DNA of 64,000 bases, taken from the NCBI GenBank assembly GCA_016178585.1, contig JACOTA010000011.1, positions 20,341-84,340 on the forward strand, in the 5' to 3' direction. The notes below the pieces were generated by a model. It saw only the letters and a program-made list of their open reading frames with translations, was not told the origin of the DNA and made no database searches. This DNA is from Nitrospirota bacterium (GTDB taxonomy: Bacteria; Nitrospirota; Nitrospiria; JACQBW01). The translations under genes and the position numbers were made by a program. Below, piece by piece: positions 5,536-63,092 of the stretch. Numbering within the stretch: position 1 is the stretch's first letter; each line of letters starts with the position of its first letter.

Positions 5536-5564
5536 TTGACTCGCTGTTGATTTCTCCTCATAAT
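5536..5564 (+). promoter_or_regulatory. sigma70-type promoter candidate for nfo (TTGACT-17 nt-CATAAT)
   Basis: TTGACT at 5536-5541, a 17-nt spacer and CATAAT at 5559-5564, about 40 nt upstream of the nfo ATG. Confidence 0.45.
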
Positions 5565-17248: not shown

Positions 17249-17360
17249 ACTGCAATGATCCTTCCTCATAATTCTCTGTGACCTTAATCAAACGGTTAAA
17301 CGCCTATTCAAGTGAACTGACATTTCTTTAATTTTATGACAGCGTTATAAACGTTTTAAG

Positions 17361-17389
17361 TTGACAATATAACTGTCATCCAATAGAAT
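17361..17389 (+). promoter_or_regulatory. promoter (TTGACA-17 nt-TAGAAT) with embedded inverted repeat TGACA-N7-TGTCA, candidate TA operator
   Basis: TTGACA at 17361-17366 and TAGAAT at 17384-17389. The perfect inverted repeat TGACAatataacTGTCA (17362-17378) overlaps the spacer, and an extra TGACA half-site lies upstream at about 17338. Confidence 0.5.
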
Positions 17390-17415
17390 AAAGATATTAA
17401 TTGAAGGAGATGATT

Positions 17416-17778
17416 ATGTCTACAGCCGCGAGGCAAAGACTCACGCGTGTAAAAAAGTCCGATAACCCTTTGGTTGAAATCCGTCACCTGTTAAATCCTT
17501 CGGATGAAGAGCTTTCCCTTTTGTTGAATACCGGCATCCGAACCGTATACCGCTGGCTTGAAGATGGCCCTCCAGGTCAACATTACCCTTTGATTAAATT
17601 GGAGGAGCTGATCGACCTTGCCAAAAAGTCCCTGAAACCCGAAGCGATCGCAGAATGGTTCCACGAATCCAACCGGGCGTTGGGAGGCTCAATTCCAATA
17701 CGTCTTATCTTGGATCCTCACGGTTTTGATCTGGTCCGCCAGGAACTGGGGAATGCTGCATCCGGAATGCCGTTGTGA
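17416..17778 (+). CDS. Xre-like/DUF2384 antitoxin of RES-Xre toxin-antitoxin pair (MbcA/ParS-like)
   Basis: About 120 aa. An ATG at 17416 lies 6-7 nt after a GAAGGAG RBS, and the track ORF from the TTG at 17401 is in frame. The C-terminal region (…AIAEWFHESNRALGGSIPIRLI…GFDLVRQELG) matches the toxin-binding DUF2384 domain. The gene overlaps the downstream RES gene by 4 nt. Confidence 0.65.
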   Translation: MSTAARQRLTRVKKSDNPLVEIRHLLNPSDEELSLLLNTGIRTVYRWLEDGPPGQHYPLIKLEELIDLAKKSLKPEAIAEWFHESNRALGGSIPIRLILDPHGFDLVRQELGNAASGMPL

Positions 17779-18314
17779 CCCCTGAGCCGGACCAGCGGTT
17801 TTATTCCCAATTGAAAAATATTTCTCTTCGCTCTCTCACCGGAGTTTACTACCGCACTGTTCCGGAACAGGCAGCAGACTACATCCTTGAGGATGGCCCC
17901 TCCTATCTATTCAAAAACCGCTATAATATTTTTAACGAATTTGGCGCCCTTTACTTTGGCGACCGGGAAGAGGTGTGCAGAGCGACTTTTGAAAAACGGG
18001 GTCTCCTTTCCTCCCGCCGTCTCTCATTTGTTCTCGTCAGCTTTGATATAGAGGTAGACGGGCTCCTCGACCTAACAGATACTGATAACCTAAAGGTTTT
18101 AAAACTTCAGCGGGAGGATTTGGTTCAAACCCGGGAAAAACCAGCGGCTTACGATATTCCCCAGAGATTGGCAAAAGCGGCTTATCAGAGCGGCCGGATT
18201 CTGGGTCTTCATGTCCCCGACGCGTCTGAAACAGGAAATACCCTGGTCCTTTATCCTGGAAGAATTCTGTCTAAACAGATTGTCCGAGTTCGTGAAAAAG
18301 TTCTCTTAAAATAA
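17775..18314 (+). CDS. RES domain toxin (RES-Xre TA family, putative NAD+-targeting)
   Basis: 179 aa with the typical RES-family pattern (…YYRTVPEQAAD…NRYNIFNEFGALYFGDREEVCRATFEKRG…LVSFDIEV…). It is operonic with the upstream antitoxin. Confidence 0.6.
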   Translation: MTPEPDQRFYSQLKNISLRSLTGVYYRTVPEQAADYILEDGPSYLFKNRYNIFNEFGALYFGDREEVCRATFEKRGLLSSRRLSFVLVSFDIEVDGLLDLTDTDNLKVLKLQREDLVQTREKPAAYDIPQRLAKAAYQSGRILGLHVPDASETGNTLVLYPGRILSKQIVRVREKVLLK

Positions 18315-18568
18315 TGGAATTGAACTAAATTAAATCAATCCCCTTTACGCAATTGATTTGAAAAAAAAGATCCTTATCAGCAATCCGTTGTTTCTGTAAT
18401 TAACACCTTTGCAGCCCTCAAAAATATTGAACACTTCAAATGGGATTAAATGATTTATTTCGTATAGCGGGATTTATTTCTCACAAACAATAGGCATAAA
18501 TTTGACTTTTTTCCTCCCTTAGAATAAATTCTAGATTCATTTTCAAGTAATAAAGAGAATCTGTCTTT

Positions 18569-19708
18569 ATGAATTCAAAAATTAAGATTCTGATTTTTGG
18601 TTTATTTGTTTGTTTTCTTGTTGTTTTAACATCATATCTTTATCTTAATCATTCAAATAATCAAGTTATCTCCACCTTAGAAAAACCGGATCAGCCATTA
18701 AAAAATCCTCTCTTACCAGATCTTCAAGAACGCATTAAACCTGACATTGCCAAACAAGGGAAAAAAATCGAAATTGATGAAAAATCTCCCCTGCAACAAA
18801 AATCTGCCAGTCCAAAAAAACATCTTTTGAAAGGAATAAAAAAAACCGGGGATACTGATCATTTGTTTCAAAATAAGATATTTCCTTCACAGGAGGCCTT
18901 AATTGCGAACCCATCGTCTTCCGGAGAGGAAAGAGAAATTTATACAGTCGTTGCTCCATATGTGGCCCTTGATGGATATGAAATCATGAAAAAAACATTA
19001 AAAATTAAAAGACCCAGAGATGAGTCTACTACGGTTACATTTCGTCTCATTTTCAAAGAAAAAGATGAAAAGAGTATTGTTACCAAACGATATTGGAAAC
19101 AGTTTGATGAAAAAGATGACATCCAATCAAAAACTCTTATCTTAGTTGATGACGCTGGAAGTGCAGAGTTTAGATGGACTGTTTTAATGATGACCGCTTT
19201 TGTGGTCAATCCAGAGGATGAAATTTCTTGGATTCTTCCGTCTTTAAGGAAAAAGGAGCTTGAAATCACACATGCTAAGGATGGGAACTTTTTAGGTTCG
19301 GATTTTACTATTGAAGATTTATCAGACCAGAAACTTGGAGAAGGAGAACACCATTTCTTGAGACAAGAAGATTGCAGGAGTGGCGGTAGAGAAAAATGTT
19401 ACCTTGTGGAGACAATATTTAAAAAAGGGCCCTATAGTAAACAGATTCGTTGGATAAAGGAGCAAGATTTTACGACGACGAAAATCGAGCACTATGATCA
19501 AAAAGGGAATCTTTTTAAAACTCAGTACATAGATTGGCAAACAATAGACGACTATAAGGTATGGCTCAGTTCGGAAATGGTAAATAATCAAAACATGCAT
19601 AAAACAAAATATGATATTTCGTTTTTAAAAATAAATTCAAACTTAAAAGACAGCCTGTTTGATATAAAGTCATATACAACAAAAGGAAATTGGAAAAATT
19701 TGCCTTGA
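18569..19708 (+). CDS. LolA-like outer-membrane lipoprotein-sorting family protein (DUF/LolA_like), secreted
   Basis: 379 aa with an N-terminal signal/TM. The C-terminal region carries the hallmark GSDFTIEDL motif of LolA-like proteins. The coding sequence is very AT-rich (about 30% GC). Confidence 0.5.
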   Translation: MNSKIKILIFGLFVCFLVVLTSYLYLNHSNNQVISTLEKPDQPLKNPLLPDLQERIKPDIAKQGKKIEIDEKSPLQQKSASPKKHLLKGIKKTGDTDHLFQNKIFPSQEALIANPSSSGEEREIYTVVAPYVALDGYEIMKKTLKIKRPRDESTTVTFRLIFKEKDEKSIVTKRYWKQFDEKDDIQSKTLILVDDAGSAEFRWTVLMMTAFVVNPEDEISWILPSLRKKELEITHAKDGNFLGSDFTIEDLSDQKLGEGEHHFLRQEDCRSGGREKCYLVETIFKKGPYSKQIRWIKEQDFTTTKIEHYDQKGNLFKTQYIDWQTIDDYKVWLSSEMVNNQNMHKTKYDISFLKINSNLKDSLFDIKSYTTKGNWKNLP

Positions 19709-19963
19709 GTGGATTAAAAAATTTCCGACTTATAGGAAGAGGTTTTCTGATAACAATAGTTTTTGTAAAAATCAGAATAGGATTGTTCCTCCAAAAAATA
19801 GAAAGGTACTTCCTGAAACAGCCGTAACATCTATACCACGATACACTATTTCTACCGGCATTCAACAAAAAAGGTTATCCATTTTGTCAAGAATGACATT
19901 AAAGCGTTCAACGATTTCCGCTGGCATCAGCATTTCCATGGTTTTCTATCTTCGATTATAGAT

Positions 19964-19992
19964 TTGCAAAGTTTATGGTTATTCATTAATAT
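19964..19992 (+). promoter_or_regulatory. sigma70-like promoter candidate (TTGCAA-17 nt-TAATAT) reading into cassette array; followed by direct repeats CCAGATAC CAGATAC and core site GTTGGGC (20014-20020)
   Basis: TTGCAA at 19964-19969 and TAATAT at 19987-19992. A tandem CAGATAC x2 lies at 19993-20007, and the GTTRRRY-type core GTTGGGC at 20014-20020 sits exactly at the AT-to-GC composition jump. Confidence 0.35.
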
Positions 19993-20049
19993 CCAGATAC
20001 CAGATACTTAATTGTTGGGCTTGCTGTTTCATTGCAGTAGAGGTCTTTC

Positions 20050-20424
20050 ATGGCCAAGAAACCGAAGCGCGACCCAGAGCGCGAGGAGCGCATCATGATG
20101 GAGATCGTCGTCGATGCCTATGGCGCACAAGAAAGGGCGATGGGGTGGTACTACTATCTGGAAGACCAGCTCCAGTTTCCGTTCACGGCGATTTGCACTA
20201 CCAAGCGAGCTATTTCTCCTCTCCGCGTGAAAGATGAGGTCGAGGTCATCGGGACGTGCGGTGAGGATGAATGTGAACACGAGATATTTGTCACGATCCG
20301 CTGGGAGAAGGAGGGTCTGGCCGTGCCGTTAGCGCAGCTGAAGCCGATCAGCGAGACGGAAGAACGGACGAAGGAGGCGGTAGCAGATTGGCATTACTGG
20401 GTTCAGATGGGTTATGAGTTCTGA
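20050..20424 (+). CDS. CcbP-like acidic calcium-binding protein family (cassette gene)
   Basis: 124 aa, acidic (MAKKPKRDPEREERIMMEIVVDAYGAQERAMGWYYYLEDQLQFPF…EDECEHEIFVTIRWEKEGLAVPL…WHYWVQMGYEF). The family assignment is from memory of CcbP-like calcium-binding proteins. Confidence 0.5.
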   Translation: MAKKPKRDPEREERIMMEIVVDAYGAQERAMGWYYYLEDQLQFPFTAICTTKRAISPLRVKDEVEVIGTCGEDECEHEIFVTIRWEKEGLAVPLAQLKPISETEERTKEAVADWHYWVQMGYEF

Positions 20425-21003
20425 GAAAGGCGAGCCGATCGCATAAAGCCGTCGCATTTGAGGGGCATTATTTTGTGGCGGCTCACCCTAATCGTTGAGA
20501 CTGTAGAAATGCCTCCCCGCGAAAACTTTTGGAGAAACTTGAAACACGAGACTGCGTAGAATGCCCTATATTGAACGATCGGATACCTGGGAAGGGTTCT
20601 CTCAGACACCCTCCCTAAATCGATTGTATGGATGCTCCAAGTACTTCTTCTACGGGCTCGTTATGAAGTATTTTCTCGGTAATCATCAAATTTTATGGTC
20701 TCCATTTTCGATAAATCAAAGGTGGACACTCCGCCGAGAGCTGCTTCCTGAAGTCGAGTAATTGGGAACATTCTTATTCGTTGTAGATTTCAAGTGGAAA
20801 GCGGAAGATCTTATGCTGATCCGCATATGACGCCATCATAACAAGGTCTAATTGATGCAAGTAGCCGAGACTTAGGAGGTTATGAGAGTTGTATTATCCG
20901 AATCGCCCGTATATTATATGGATCGGGAACCGATGTTTCGCAGATTATGCGGATCAATCTAACCATAGTTAGGCGGCTTAACAACCGGCGGCGGAGGTAG
21001 CAG

Positions 21004-21405
21004 ATGGGACCTGATGAACGAGAAATCCGCGAGGTTCATTCGACCTGGATCAATGCCGTCAATGCCGGCGATCTGGTTCGCTTGCTCACGTTGATGGCGG
21101 ACGATGTCGTGTTCCTCAATCCGGGCCAAGCGCCGTTCGGCCGGGATGGATTCTCCGCCAACTTCTCGGCCGCGCACCAACAGGCTCGGATCCGTTGCAG
21201 CAGCGAGTTGGAAGAGGTCGTAGTCATCGGCGAAGTCGCGTACACTCGGAGCCGGGACGCGTTGTCGGTGACCCCGCGCGCAGGCGGGGAAGCGACGCAG
21301 CTCGCCGGTCATCGGATCACGGTATACCGCAAACAGCCCGACGGCCGCTGGCTCTTGTCCCGCGATGCCCATACGCTGTCCCCGGTTGAGGAATTGAGAT
21401 CGTAA
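21004..21405 (+). CDS. NTF2-like / SgcJ-EcaC (DUF4440) family protein (cassette gene)
   Basis: 133 aa (…IREVHSTWINAVNAGDLVRLLTLMADDVVFLNPGQAPFGRDGF…) with the typical SnoaL/DUF4440 N-terminal motif. It starts 30 nt after a GTTAGGC core. Confidence 0.65.
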   Translation: MGPDEREIREVHSTWINAVNAGDLVRLLTLMADDVVFLNPGQAPFGRDGFSANFSAAHQQARIRCSSELEEVVVIGEVAYTRSRDALSVTPRAGGEATQLAGHRITVYRKQPDGRWLLSRDAHTLSPVEELRS

Positions 21406-21437
21406 GAAAGGCGTTCTCGGCGGCATAAAGGTACGCC

Positions 21438-21497
21438 GCCTAACAATTCATTCAAGCCGACGCCGCTTCGCGGCGCGGCTTAATTCAGACGTTAGGC
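21438..21497 (+). repeat. integron attC site (59-be), aadA-type
   Basis: GCCTAACAATTCATTCAAGCCGACGCCGCTTCGCGGCGCGGCTTAATTCAGACGTTAGGC. It has an R'' inverse core GCCTAAC, a palindromic centre GCCGACGCCGC/GCGGCGCGGC and an R' core GTTAGGC. From memory it is near-identical to the aadA1 59-base element (…CTAACAATTCGTTCAAGCCGACGCCGCTTCGCGGCGCGGCTTAACTCAAGCGTTAGAT). Confidence 0.75.
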
Positions 21498-21504
21498 CTC
21501 GGGT

Positions 21505-22326
21505 ATGTCGCGCAATCGCATAACCATCCTCCATGACTCGTTCGGAAAGCGCGCCGACCTGACCAAGGATTGGGGTTTTGCCGCGCTGGTCGAGTTCGCC
21601 GGAAAGCGCATCTTGTTCGATACCGGCAACAATGCGCGGACCTTTGCTCAAAACACTGAGGCACTTGGCGTCGATCTGCGGAAACTTGACTTTGCGGCAA
21701 TCTCTCATCGACATGGCGACCACACAAGCGGGCTGAACCACCTGTTTAAGCTAAATCCCGGCATAACGGTGTATACGCCCGACGAGACGTACGGAGTTTT
21801 CGGTTCCAGTCTTCCCGGCATCTTCTATCCGCGCTGCCATTCGCTTCCGGCATATATGCAGTACTACGATGGTCAGCCGCCGGAAACTATTCGCCACGGG
21901 ACACCATGGCCGGAGGCCAAATTCGTCTGGGTCAAGGAGACGACTGAGATCGCCCAAGATGTCTGGCTAGTCGCGGTGGTTTCGGACATGCCGGGCACTC
22001 GCGAGATGCGTGAGCTGTCTCTGGCACTGCGGACACCTCGCGGATTGGTTCTAGTGGCGGGCTGCTCTCATCCAGGAATCGAGAATATTCTCGCAGCGTC
22101 GCGTGCGGTCTACGACCACCTCTACTGTATTTTCGGAGGCCTTCATCTAGTTTTGACAAAGGAGCCAGAAATTCGACGCATCGCAAATGCTCTACGCGAG
22201 CAATGGCGCGTGGATCAGATTGCGCCCGGACACTGCACCGGCGAGCCCGCATTCCTGGCACTAAGCGAAGCGTTCGGAGAAAGATACATATGCGCTGGTT
22301 TGGGAGACACAATTGATCTTCCCTGA
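21505..22326 (+). CDS. MBL-fold metallo-hydrolase (cassette gene)
   Basis: 273 aa with an HxHxDH motif (AISHRHGDHTSGLNHL) and downstream His/Asp ligands. The ATG lies 8 nt after the attC R' core. Confidence 0.75.
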   Translation: MSRNRITILHDSFGKRADLTKDWGFAALVEFAGKRILFDTGNNARTFAQNTEALGVDLRKLDFAAISHRHGDHTSGLNHLFKLNPGITVYTPDETYGVFGSSLPGIFYPRCHSLPAYMQYYDGQPPETIRHGTPWPEAKFVWVKETTEIAQDVWLVAVVSDMPGTREMRELSLALRTPRGLVLVAGCSHPGIENILAASRAVYDHLYCIFGGLHLVLTKEPEIRRIANALREQWRVDQIAPGHCTGEPAFLALSEAFGERYICAGLGDTIDLP

Positions 22327-22343
22327 CCCGACGACTTCACTAG

Positions 22344-22401
22344 GCCTAACCACGCTTTGCAGCCGACGCGCAAACGGCGCGGCTGAATGCGGACGTTATG
22401 C
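22344..22401 (+). repeat. integron attC site
   Basis: GCCTAACCACGCTTTGCAGCCGACGCGCAAACGGCGCGGCTGAATGCGGACGTTATGC. It has the same R''/centre/R' organisation as attC1, with a bulged imperfect palindrome. Confidence 0.65.
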
Positions 22402-22697
22402 ACCCTTTCTTTCCGAAATCCTTATATTCCCAGGATCTTCTTCCTTGAGGATTCGTAGGTGCTATCCTCAAAAGATACAGGTTTTTAGACACTAATATTT
22501 ATTTTTTATTTCGACATTTTTTAAAAGGGTTCCACCTAAGTTGTGGGGGAACAAACCAGAGACTCCTTCTGGCTACCGCGGCAGTATCGCCACTTTCTGG
22601 ACGGCCGTTGCAAACCCCGGCTTGAAGAGGACCCGCAGGTTATGGTGTCTTTATTACAAAGAGGGGGGTGAAAGAAGGGAATTTTAAACTATGAAGC

Positions 22698-62345: not shown

Positions 62346-63092
62346 ATGCCTAACGTTATTCTGCAGGTCAAAAACCTCGTTAAAAAATTTGAGAAGACCC
62401 GGGCGGTTAACGGGGTCTCATTTCATGTTTATGAAGGTGAAATCCTGGGGCTGTTAGGGCCTAACGGCGCGGGCAAAACCACTTTAATTGCCATGTTGTT
62501 AGGGGTATTAACGCCGACATCGGGAACGATTTCAATTTTTGACCTTGACTTTCAACACAACCGTGAGAAAATCTTAAGTCAGGTGAATTTTTCATCGACC
62601 TATATTTCCATGCCTCTTTCGTTAAGCGTAAAAGAAAACCTGATTTTTTTTTCTAAACTTTATCATGTCCCCGATTATGAAACGAGGATACGCGAACTTC
62701 TAAAACTTTGTGAAATTGAGCATTTAGGCACTCATTTGACCCGGGATCTTTCTACGGGGCAATTGTCCAGGCTGAATCTGGTCAAGGCCCTTCTCAATCG
62801 TCCCCGCATTTTATTTCTGGATGAGCCAACCGCAAGCCTCGACCCTGATATGGCCGATAAGGCACGGGAATTATTGAAAAATCTTAAAAATCGTTTTCCA
62901 TGTACGATCATCTATACCTCGCATAATATGAAGGAGATGGAGCAAATTTCTGACCGAATTATCTTTTTAAATAGAGGCGAGATTATTGCCGAAGGATCCC
63001 CCCGGCAGATCATGGCGCTTTATCGAAAGAAAAACCTTGAAGAGGTCTTTCTCGAAGTTGTCAGAGGGGAGGTTCCGGATGAAACTTTATAG
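62346..63092 (+). CDS. ABC transporter ATP-binding protein (ABC-2 type exporter ATPase)
   Basis: Walker A GPNGAGKTT, signature LSTGQLSRLNLVKAL and Walker B LFLDEPT. Confidence 0.88.
   Translation: MPNVILQVKNLVKKFEKTRAVNGVSFHVYEGEILGLLGPNGAGKTTLIAMLLGVLTPTSGTISIFDLDFQHNREKILSQVNFSSTYISMPLSLSVKENLIFFSKLYHVPDYETRIRELLKLCEIEHLGTHLTRDLSTGQLSRLNLVKALLNRPRILFLDEPTASLDPDMADKARELLKNLKNRFPCTIIYTSHNMKEMEQISDRIIFLNRGEIIAEGSPRQIMALYRKKNLEEVFLEVVRGEVPDETL

Follow-up and report, generated by a model that had tools for sequence, protein, structure and literature searches.

A Xanthomonadales-like attC site in a two-cassette cluster on a Nitrospirota contig

How does an integron cassette recombination site that resembles those of clinical class 1 integrons come to lie in a genome of the phylum Nitrospirota? 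The site, attC1 (GCCTAACAATTCATTCAAGCCGACGCCGCTTCGCGGCGCGGCTTAATTCAGACGTTAGGC), occupies positions 21438-21497 (+ strand, 60 nt) of a 64,000-nt stretch of DNA from contig JACOTA010000011.1 (assembly GCA_016178585.1, positions 20,341 to 84,340 of the forward strand), called the window below. The first-pass annotation had read this 60-mer exactly as it stands and described it as nearly identical to the aadA1-type attC, or 59-base element (59-be), of clinical class 1 integrons. According to the present analysis, attC1 is very probably the site of an ordinary cassette of the Xanthomonadales-like (XL) type, in a horizontally acquired cluster of two cassettes that belongs to the clusters of attC sites without an integron integrase (CALINs) and likely arose by insertion at a genomic site of the attG type. 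The framing as a clinical class 1 integron site had to be given up, as attC1 is one substitution away from the chromosomal Xanthomonadales consensus and seven from aadA1, and no class 1 parts were found in the window.

Structure and relatives of attC1

Sites of the attC class begin at the 5' end with an R'' core of the form RYYYAAC, finish at the 3' end with an R' core of the form GTTRRRY, and have a total length of about 57-141 nt. Their bottom strand folds into a hairpin in which R'' is paired with R' and L'' with L', extrahelical bases mark the strand, and the integron integrase (IntI) cleaves it at AAC, which is G|TT on the top strand. In attC1 the R'' core is GCCTAAC (21438-21444, + strand) and the R' core GTTAGGC (21491-21497, + strand); they are complementary at 7/7 positions and are the sole pair in the window with both full complementarity and a strong fold. 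The L''/L' stem, an imperfect repeat, has two extrahelical top-strand bases, C21453 and A21460 (C16 and A23 of the site, G and T on the bottom strand), while the unpaired spacers measure 5 and 6 nt and the terminal loop 3 nt. Inverted cores, imperfect repeat, extrahelical bases, spacer and stem-loop are all present, and at sequence level these features of the hairpin are all intact.

A covariance model (R1) built in this analysis from 52 related attCs, and not the model of the published authors, gave attC1, read with the + strand on top, 84.3 bits (E 9e-19), against 37 bits in the opposite orientation. Over the whole 64 kb it recognised exactly two sites of this type, attC1 and the site attC2 described below. 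Across the 52 relatives 92.8% of stem cells form a pair, a share that falls to 23-40% if the partners are shifted, and the L-box pair at positions 13/47 covaries (AU in 21 sites, GC in 15, CG in 8). The bottom strand of attC1 folds as DNA at -21.8 kcal/mol (z = -5.3), comparison with plasmids by blastn, class 1 integron references included, recovered attC1-like sites at E 2e-21, and 0.00 matches to the attC-family pattern are expected in shuffled sequence. Because of the blastn E value, the lack of matches after shuffling, the model score and the bottom-strand hairpin, chance is excluded: attC1 is a genuine, canonical attC, and its resemblance to known sites is far beyond chance. Its near-identity to attCs of the aadB and aadA1 type, which are known to recombine, suggests that an integron integrase would recombine it as a folded bottom strand. 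Four Logan contigs, assembled from different runs, have an end within attC1 (at 21438, 21459, 21459, and 21467), either where the imperfect palindrome split the assembly graph or where the attC is a repeat common to other cassettes in the sample.

The aadA1 59-be quoted in the first-pass annotation proved correct, with an exact match of 60/60 in plasmid R100 (Tn21/In2), where it is placed 2-4 nt after aadA1 and upstream of qacEdelta1-sul1; it recurs at 99% identity or more in 1,962 plasmid records. attC1 is identical to it at 53/60 positions overall and at 42/46 between the R'' and R' cores, which makes four central differences instead of the roughly three estimated at first. Two of the four (A13/T47 vs G13/C47) form a compensatory pair in the L-box stem. 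The similarity is not limited to the cores, as the palindromic centre is common to attC1 and the aadA1 attC. The attCs of qacF and aadB are closer, each at 57/60 in the 60-nt frame. More than 5,000 plasmid records were matched by blastn with attC1, the best of them (61/62) at the attC behind qacF on E. coli pTB221, where the gene is part of a class 1 integron, and the next-best at aadB attCs.

Still closer relatives are chromosomal. One genome per bacterial species was scanned with the pattern CTAAC-N10-AGCCGACGC-N3-15-GCGCGGCT-N10-GTTA, which was made in this analysis and fits both attCs of the window. At least 120 loci were found; all counts by taxon cover the matches listed and were assigned by record title. 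Xanthomonadales/Lysobacterales account for 64 of the 120 loci listed (among them Luteimonas, Lysobacter, Pseudoxanthomonas, Xanthomonas, Stenotrophomonas, Cognatilysobacter, Thermomonas, Arenimonas, and Rhodanobacter), other or unclassified Proteobacteria for 44, and contigs of non-proteobacterial or unclassified metagenome-assembled genomes (MAGs) for 12. Many of these loci are tandem arrays, with up to at least 12 sites in Cognatilysobacter lacus, and beside many of them tblastn detected IntI homologues 50-57% identical to IntI1. Some attCs of the attC1 type start with GCCTAACCAT and some finish with AGAGTTAGGC. The consensus of 124 distinct 60-nt chromosomal sites, mostly from Xanthomonadales among the matches listed, is identical to attC1 at 59/60 positions, the single difference being G vs A at 21489. 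This exact consensus is present in at least 12 sites at 11 or more loci, in Luteimonas, Lysobacter, Pseudoxanthomonas, Xanthomonas, Thermomonas, Methylobacillus, and Ottowia. A site with 58/60 or better identity to attC1 was found at 27 of the loci listed, 23 of Xanthomonadales and four of Betaproteobacteria.

These relationships agree with a published classification. Ghaly et al. (2021) assigned the attCs of aadA1a, aadB, and qacF, among 19 resistance cassettes, to the Xanthomonadales type, and 935 of the 941 attCs of this type in complete chromosomes (99.4%) were from Xanthomonadales (PMC8352920). Many clinical resistance cassettes, those of aadA1, aadB, qacF, and catB3 among them, are predicted to stem from the XL clade, and the clinical attCs were placed as derived from the Xanthomonadales pool, not the reverse; because 99.4% of the clade's members in complete chromosomes are from this order, the authors were unable to say whether the grouping is taxonomic or environmental (PMC8352920). 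Judged by its sequence, attC1 is a Xanthomonadales-like attC, and the clinical aadA1, aadB, and qacF attCs are members of the same clade. What stands of the original comparison is the common lineage with the aadA1 attC, while aadA1 at 53/60 is not the nearest relative, as qacF and aadB reach 57/60 and the Xanthomonadales consensus 59/60. The link between the aadA1 lineage and Xanthomonadales is already published, and the window adds to it one well-supported case from a distant phylum without a nearby integrase.

The attCs of sedentary chromosomal integrons of the XL type in Xanthomonas, Luteimonas, Lysobacter, Pseudoxanthomonas, Stenotrophomonas, and Thermomonas (PMC8352920) have the length, R and L boxes, extrahelical bases, and 3-nt loop of attC1. 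Their hosts, however, are Xanthomonadales with several to a dozen or more sites per stretch, whereas here two cassettes lie in a Nitrospirota MAG of 45% GC, with no IntI or attI found nearby. The attCs of aadA1, aadB, and qacF in class 1 integrons (Tn21/In2 on R100; pTB221; KP1768_p1) are of the same lineage, with a central stem-loop identical to that of attC1, but these integrons carry their platform and resistance cargo, neither of which is part of the window cluster, and attC1 is nearer to the chromosomal consensus.

Attention was also drawn to attCs of the Xanthomonadales type scoring 65-80 bits on MAG contigs binned to Acidobacteriota, Longimicrobiaceae, and Chthoniobacterales (L096, 2926-3528; L020, 1601-1660; L043, 2466-2949). 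The 80-bit site lies on a 130-kb Acidobacteriota contig, and L096 has a second, weaker attC of 37 bits. No IntI homologue was found in the fetched stretches of these three contigs, and their sites may be further cross-phylum CALINs or single attC sites lacking integrase (SALINs), or binning errors on short contigs. The other non-proteobacterial MAG contigs with such sites are mostly short and possibly mis-binned, and among the matches listed none is as near to the consensus as attC1.

The two cassettes and their chromosomal setting

Cassette A is 523 bp long (20969-21491, + strand), its bounds, like those of cassette B, being taken from the G|TT crossover points of the flanking cores. It consists of a short leader with a GGAGG ribosome-binding site, one open reading frame (ORF), and attC1 up to the crossover G. 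The ORF (21004-21405, + strand) encodes a protein of 133 aa of the SgcJ/EcaC family with a DUF4440/SnoaL-like fold (Pfam PF14534, E 2.3e-16; NCBIfam TIGR02246, 61.9 bits, above cutoff), and attC1 begins 32 nt past its stop codon in the same orientation. The cassette has a G+C content of 61.6%, compared with 45.5% in the remainder of the window, and G+C at third codon positions (GC3) in its ORF is 0.73, against 0.43-0.49 in host genes. Three contigs of high GC, assembled from other samples, carry copies of the ORF that are 91-95% identical in nucleotides. The ratio of non-synonymous to synonymous substitution rates (dN/dS) between the ORF and its homologues is 0.18-0.26, which indicates a functional gene. 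In L137, a Logan contig of 60-70% GC from a different study, cassette A is present at 94% identity; the homology begins exactly at GTTAGGC, position 20968, and is preceded there by a different attC-like core pair, so that the left boundary of cassette A is independently supported. Two more high-GC contigs have the ORF at 91-94% identity.

Cassette B is 904 bp long (21492-22395, + strand; GC 57%), has one ORF and attC2, and is bounded by the attC1 and attC2 crossovers. The ORF (21505-22326, + strand; 273 aa) encodes a metallo-hydrolase of the metallo-beta-lactamase (MBL) fold (Pfam Lactamase_B_2 and Lactamase_B). Its best matches among solved structures are the uncharacterised MBL-fold hydrolases 7dck, 3h3e, and 2p4z, and its assignment as a resistance beta-lactamase was rejected, with scores of 19-23 bits for the NCBIfam class B/B3 models against cutoffs of 100-240. 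The 58-nt attC2 (22344-22401, + strand) begins 17 nt past the stop codon, and for both attCs the model orientation agrees with that of the genes. It has the architecture of attC1 and the stem AGCCGACGC...GCGCGGCT in common with it, 43 of 60 aligned columns being the same in the pairwise alignment, and represents a different subtype. Its covariance-model score is 54.1 bits (E 5e-11) and its bottom strand folds at -15.7 kcal/mol (z = -1.8); the cores GCCTAAC and GTTATGC are complementary at 6/7 positions, with one mismatch in the R stem. The nearest relatives of attC2 among the matches listed, at about 80-85%, are from Pelomonas, Comamonas, and other betaproteobacterial contigs. Taken jointly, the cassettes have GC of 57-62% and GC3 of 0.61-0.73 compared with about 45% and 0.43-0.49 in the host, a composition that marks the pair as foreign to it, and their predicted cargo is of an environmental type, not resistance genes.

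By the definitions of IntegronFinder the cluster is an ordinary two-cassette CALIN of 1.43 kb. A CALIN comprises at least two clustered attC sites with no integron integrase within about 4 kb; in the window two attCs lie 846 bp apart, the structure known from other CALINs, and what stands out is an attC type typical of another phylum. A tblastn search of the 64 kb with IntI1 gave a best E of 0.45, while the same query detects IntI beside many of the sampled arrays, and Pfam found no integrase domain among the ORFs scanned near the array. The adjacent intI that makes a complete integron was thus not found within the window. Neither intI1, the 5'- and 3'-conserved segments (5'-CS/3'-CS), qacEdelta1/sul1, and Tn402 tni nor transposon or resistance genes were found in it, and no promoter-like site was found on the + strand upstream of the first cassette. 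Published counts for complete genomes of the phylum Nitrospira are two CALINs and not a single complete integron (PMC9024848). CALINs of two cassettes are the commonest size class.

The host assignment of the first reading, an environmental and non-proteobacterial genome, was borne out. The window is the same as JACPZL010000031.1 (GCA_016195515.1) but for 2 SNPs (single-nucleotide polymorphisms), and the proteins on a 92-kb contig of a second NCBI MAG match it exactly; the MAG contigs are 81 and 92 kb long, and both MAGs are labelled Nitrospirae/Nitrospirota. The closest long relative is a contig of a Nitrospiria MAG (L139) with suhB at 85% identity and the same gene order, TPR-TPR-FAD oxidase-M50 ... 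suhB-mutS-LapA-HIT-UDG-TsaE-...-ApbE. Housekeeping and accessory genes of Nitrospirota flank the cluster. Both junctions are covered, with at most 2 SNPs, in Logan assemblies from six further runs: two contigs (L004, L009) lead from host genes through a gene for the calcium-binding protein CcbP and cassette A to attC1 and cassette B, and two others (L007, L008) from attC1 through cassette B and attC2 to suhB and mutS. A chimeric join is very unlikely, because contigs of independent runs and two MAG assemblies cross the junctions. Between Peptidase_M50 and suhB (about 17250-22697) the window has, according to Pfam, an Xre/RES pair, a LolA-like gene, the CcbP gene, and the two cassettes, whereas the corresponding interval of L139 (10808-15890) has three unrelated genes, for a 409-aa protein, a histidine kinase, and a response regulator. 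The cassettes therefore occupy a variable spot of the chromosome, as the content of the interval differs while the flanking order is kept.

Route of acquisition and competing explanations

When IntI inserts a circular cassette at a G|TT site, the left junction consists of the target G and the cassette TTRRRY, and the right junction of the attC G and the target TT. The left junction of the cluster reads ...ATCTAACCATAG|TTAGGC, in which TTAGGC belongs to cassette A according to L137, and the right junction ...GCGGACG|TTATGCACCC. The latter is the crossover G22395|T22396 of attC2, whose R' core GTTATGC meets non-cassette DNA there; this core is what a hybrid with the target DNA would be expected to look like. 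A sister strain has conserved the 300 bp of non-cassette DNA to the right of attC2. Reconstruction of the target gives ...CATAG|TTATGC..., in agreement with GWT, the consensus of the attG sites at which cassettes are inserted into genomes according to Loot et al. (preprint, 10.1101/2022.09.11.507474), where small CALINs are also documented. Cassettes of aadB, which carry an XL-type attC, have precedents at secondary sites in RSF1010 and pRAY. The window is like these attG and secondary-site insertions in the G|TT at both ends, the hybrid terminal R', the non-cassette host flanks, and the lack of a cis integrase in the 64 kb; it differs from them in having two cassettes instead of one, in that no empty site was recovered, and in a left R''-like CTAAC that attG is not known to need.

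A Nitrospirota population probably acquired the cluster horizontally, from a pool of cassettes that circulates for the most part among Xanthomonadales and related Proteobacteria. Most likely IntI inserted one or two circular cassettes at a genomic GTT other than attI, a site of the attG type, within an interval that was already variable, with the integrase supplied in trans or from elsewhere in the genome. Without an integrase in cis the attCs are now probably passive, though presumably still recombination-competent, and transcripts reading through from upstream would be needed to express the cassette genes.

Several results weigh against this account. The integrase search covered 64 kb of the genome, and the donor taxon was read from attC type and GC content. 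attC2 is nearer to betaproteobacterial attCs, and tblastn with the cassette proteins gave no match in the 120 arrays listed, Xanthomonadales included. A search of JGI metagenome contigs recovered neither CAATCTAACCATAGTTATGCACCC, the sequence predicted for the locus before insertion, nor a conserved stretch of the suhB-side flank. The contig of the closest strain (L136, suhB 97%) stops 15 bp short of the junction, and L139 carries other genes in the interval. Because no empty site was recovered, we infer the insertion event rather than show it. Finally, chance is an unlikely source of the CTAAC found 4 nt upstream of the left crossover, which could be the stub of a decayed attC. It is part of a mini-palindrome, ATCTAAC-CATA-GTTAGGC (20957-20974, + strand), with R''-like and R'-like cores, no L boxes, and the presumed crossover at G20968|T20969. 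CTAAC-N3-6-GTTAG occurs once in the window, against 0.03 occurrences expected by chance; with the attC model the mini-palindrome scored 11 bits (E about 4.5), which is not significant.

The mini-palindrome speaks for the most probable of the competing explanations, a remnant of a resident integron or longer array that lost its integrase and attI, had the centre of one attC deleted down to CTAAC-CATA-GTTAGGC, and kept two cassettes. It places an R''-like CTAAC exactly at the left boundary, and since some attCs of the type start with GCCTAACCAT and some finish with AGAGTTAGGC, an internal deletion could yield the observed sequence. Toxin-antitoxin genes and small one-directional modules, which are often seen in chromosomal arrays, lie nearby, and loss of the integrase is a recognised origin of CALINs. 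Such a remnant is nevertheless the less probable history, a possibility to be kept in mind but doubtful. No signal of an intI pseudogene was found in the 64 kb, and published data have 95% of CALINs lying away from intI pseudogenes. Upstream of the first crossover only the mini-palindrome was seen, and 20748-20968 has no similarity to any sampled integron locus, attI regions included, attI being too diverse for exclusion by sequence. There is no further attC of the type in the window, and the CcbP unit next to the cluster is not cassette-like, with homology ends that are not attC cores and no attC fold.

If insertion of the attG type is preferred, the same palindrome may be given a role in it. 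It is conceivable, but tentative, that a Nitrospirota bacterium without an integron at this locus captured cassettes of the Xanthomonadales pool at a CTAAC-N4-GTTA palindrome mimicking the R box of a folded attC. If so, the locus would be a natural cross-phylum example of the attG route, and R-box-like palindromes would be hinted at as preferred natural targets, which would widen the reach of the pool feeding clinical integrons. A second mini-palindrome with CTAAC-N5-GTTAG, ACCTAACTTTTAGTTAGGT (ACCTAAC-TTTTA-GTTAGGT), was noticed between genes at 5540-5558 of a Nitrospiria MAG contig (L134), with no adjacent cassette detected; this example is a weak hint that mini-palindromes may be native to these genomes.

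Descent of attC1 from cassettes of clinical or anthropogenic class 1 integrons (aadA1, aadB, qacF) is highly improbable. Thousands of plasmid-borne class 1 integron attCs are 88-98% identical to it, with the 61/62 match after qacF in pTB221 as the best, but the chromosomal consensus at 59/60 is closer than the clinical attCs tested at 53-57/60, class 1 backbone, transposon, and resistance genes were not found in the window, the cargo genes are of an environmental type, and the published direction runs from the Xanthomonadales pool to the clinical attCs (PMC8352920). An assembly or binning artefact, in which high-GC proteobacterial cassette DNA was mis-joined at a repeat, may be suspected from the sharp jump in GC at the cluster and from the Logan contigs that end inside attC1 (21438, 21459, 21467), but it is just as improbable, since L004/L009 and L007/L008 from independent runs cross the respective junctions, two separate MAG assemblies yield the same 81-92 kb contig, and breaks in attC1 are to be expected from an imperfect palindrome or from a repeat common to other cassettes.

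Of the explanations weighed, horizontal acquisition of the two-cassette cluster accounts for a well-assembled XL attC, one substitution from the consensus, that is fixed in a chromosome of a different phylum and has retained foreign GC. This combination argues for recent movement of the pool between phyla and for its persistence without a local integrase. The 44 loci of other or unclassified Proteobacteria and the 12 non-proteobacterial or unclassified MAG contigs among those listed point the same way. The locus is a clear cross-phylum example of known phenomena, namely cassette transfer, CALINs, and attG insertion, and not a new element or mechanism. It is of interest as a case, cleanly assembled and apparently recent, in which the pool that also feeds clinical integrons has crossed phyla, and as a candidate natural insertion of the attG type.

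Neighbouring variable units

Between suhB and attC2 the non-coding stretch 22416-22697 is mostly about 85-90% conserved with the sister-strain contig L136, with long identical runs such as GCGATACTGCCGCGGTAGC (- strand), and is missing from the more distant relative L139. No Rfam match was obtained for the suhB-proximal spacer, even at E<=1; a small RNA or a regulatory region may lie there.

On the other side of the cluster, an Xre antitoxin gene (PF09722) and a RES toxin gene (PF08808) with overlapping stop and start codons (17401-18314) lie just upstream of a gene for a LolA-like or TP_0789-like lipoprotein (18569-19708), which has 34% GC and GC3 of 0.29, far below its neighbours. In a search of 5.8 billion proteins no homologue of the LolA-like protein was found at E<=1e-40 beyond its own alleles, and the gene was discarded as a synteny anchor, its only match at this threshold being itself. 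Far from the cluster, a further attC at 62459-62504 with CCCTAAC...GTTAGGC cores (14 bits, E about 1) was rejected as a chance match, as it lies within the sequence coding for the Walker A motif (GPNGAGKTT) of an ABC transporter ATPase gene.

The CcbP ORF (20050-20424; PF11535, calcium-binding) has high GC, and GTTGGGC stands before it at 20014. It was considered as a third cassette, with the array starting at G|TTGGGC, and rejected, as homology elsewhere ignores that boundary. An attC-like stretch at 20434-20496 shows no AAC/GTT pairing, a fold of z = -0.6, and no match to the model, and the fold of a long attC proposed at 20817-20975 was unconvincing. The unit as a whole (19816-20747) comprises the gene with about 200 bp of AT-rich sequence upstream and about 320 bp downstream; copies of it, 92-94% identical in nucleotides, are found on L133, a JGI contig of 73 kb, and on a contig of a Nitrospiria MAG (L134/L135). 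Homology extends from 19816/19857, within the AT-rich upstream part, to 20463/20747, and its ends are not attC cores. Neither the model nor a crude core-plus-fold scan detected an attC on L133 or L134. Each copy is placed among toxin-antitoxin genes and small ORFs on the same strand, and the CcbP unit looks like a small mobile, variable or modular unit of some other kind. On L133, a Gp49/HTH_37 pair is preceded by scattered pieces of the region upstream of CcbP, namely three segments of 16-17 nt that are 81-88% identical and lie about 940-980 bp away.

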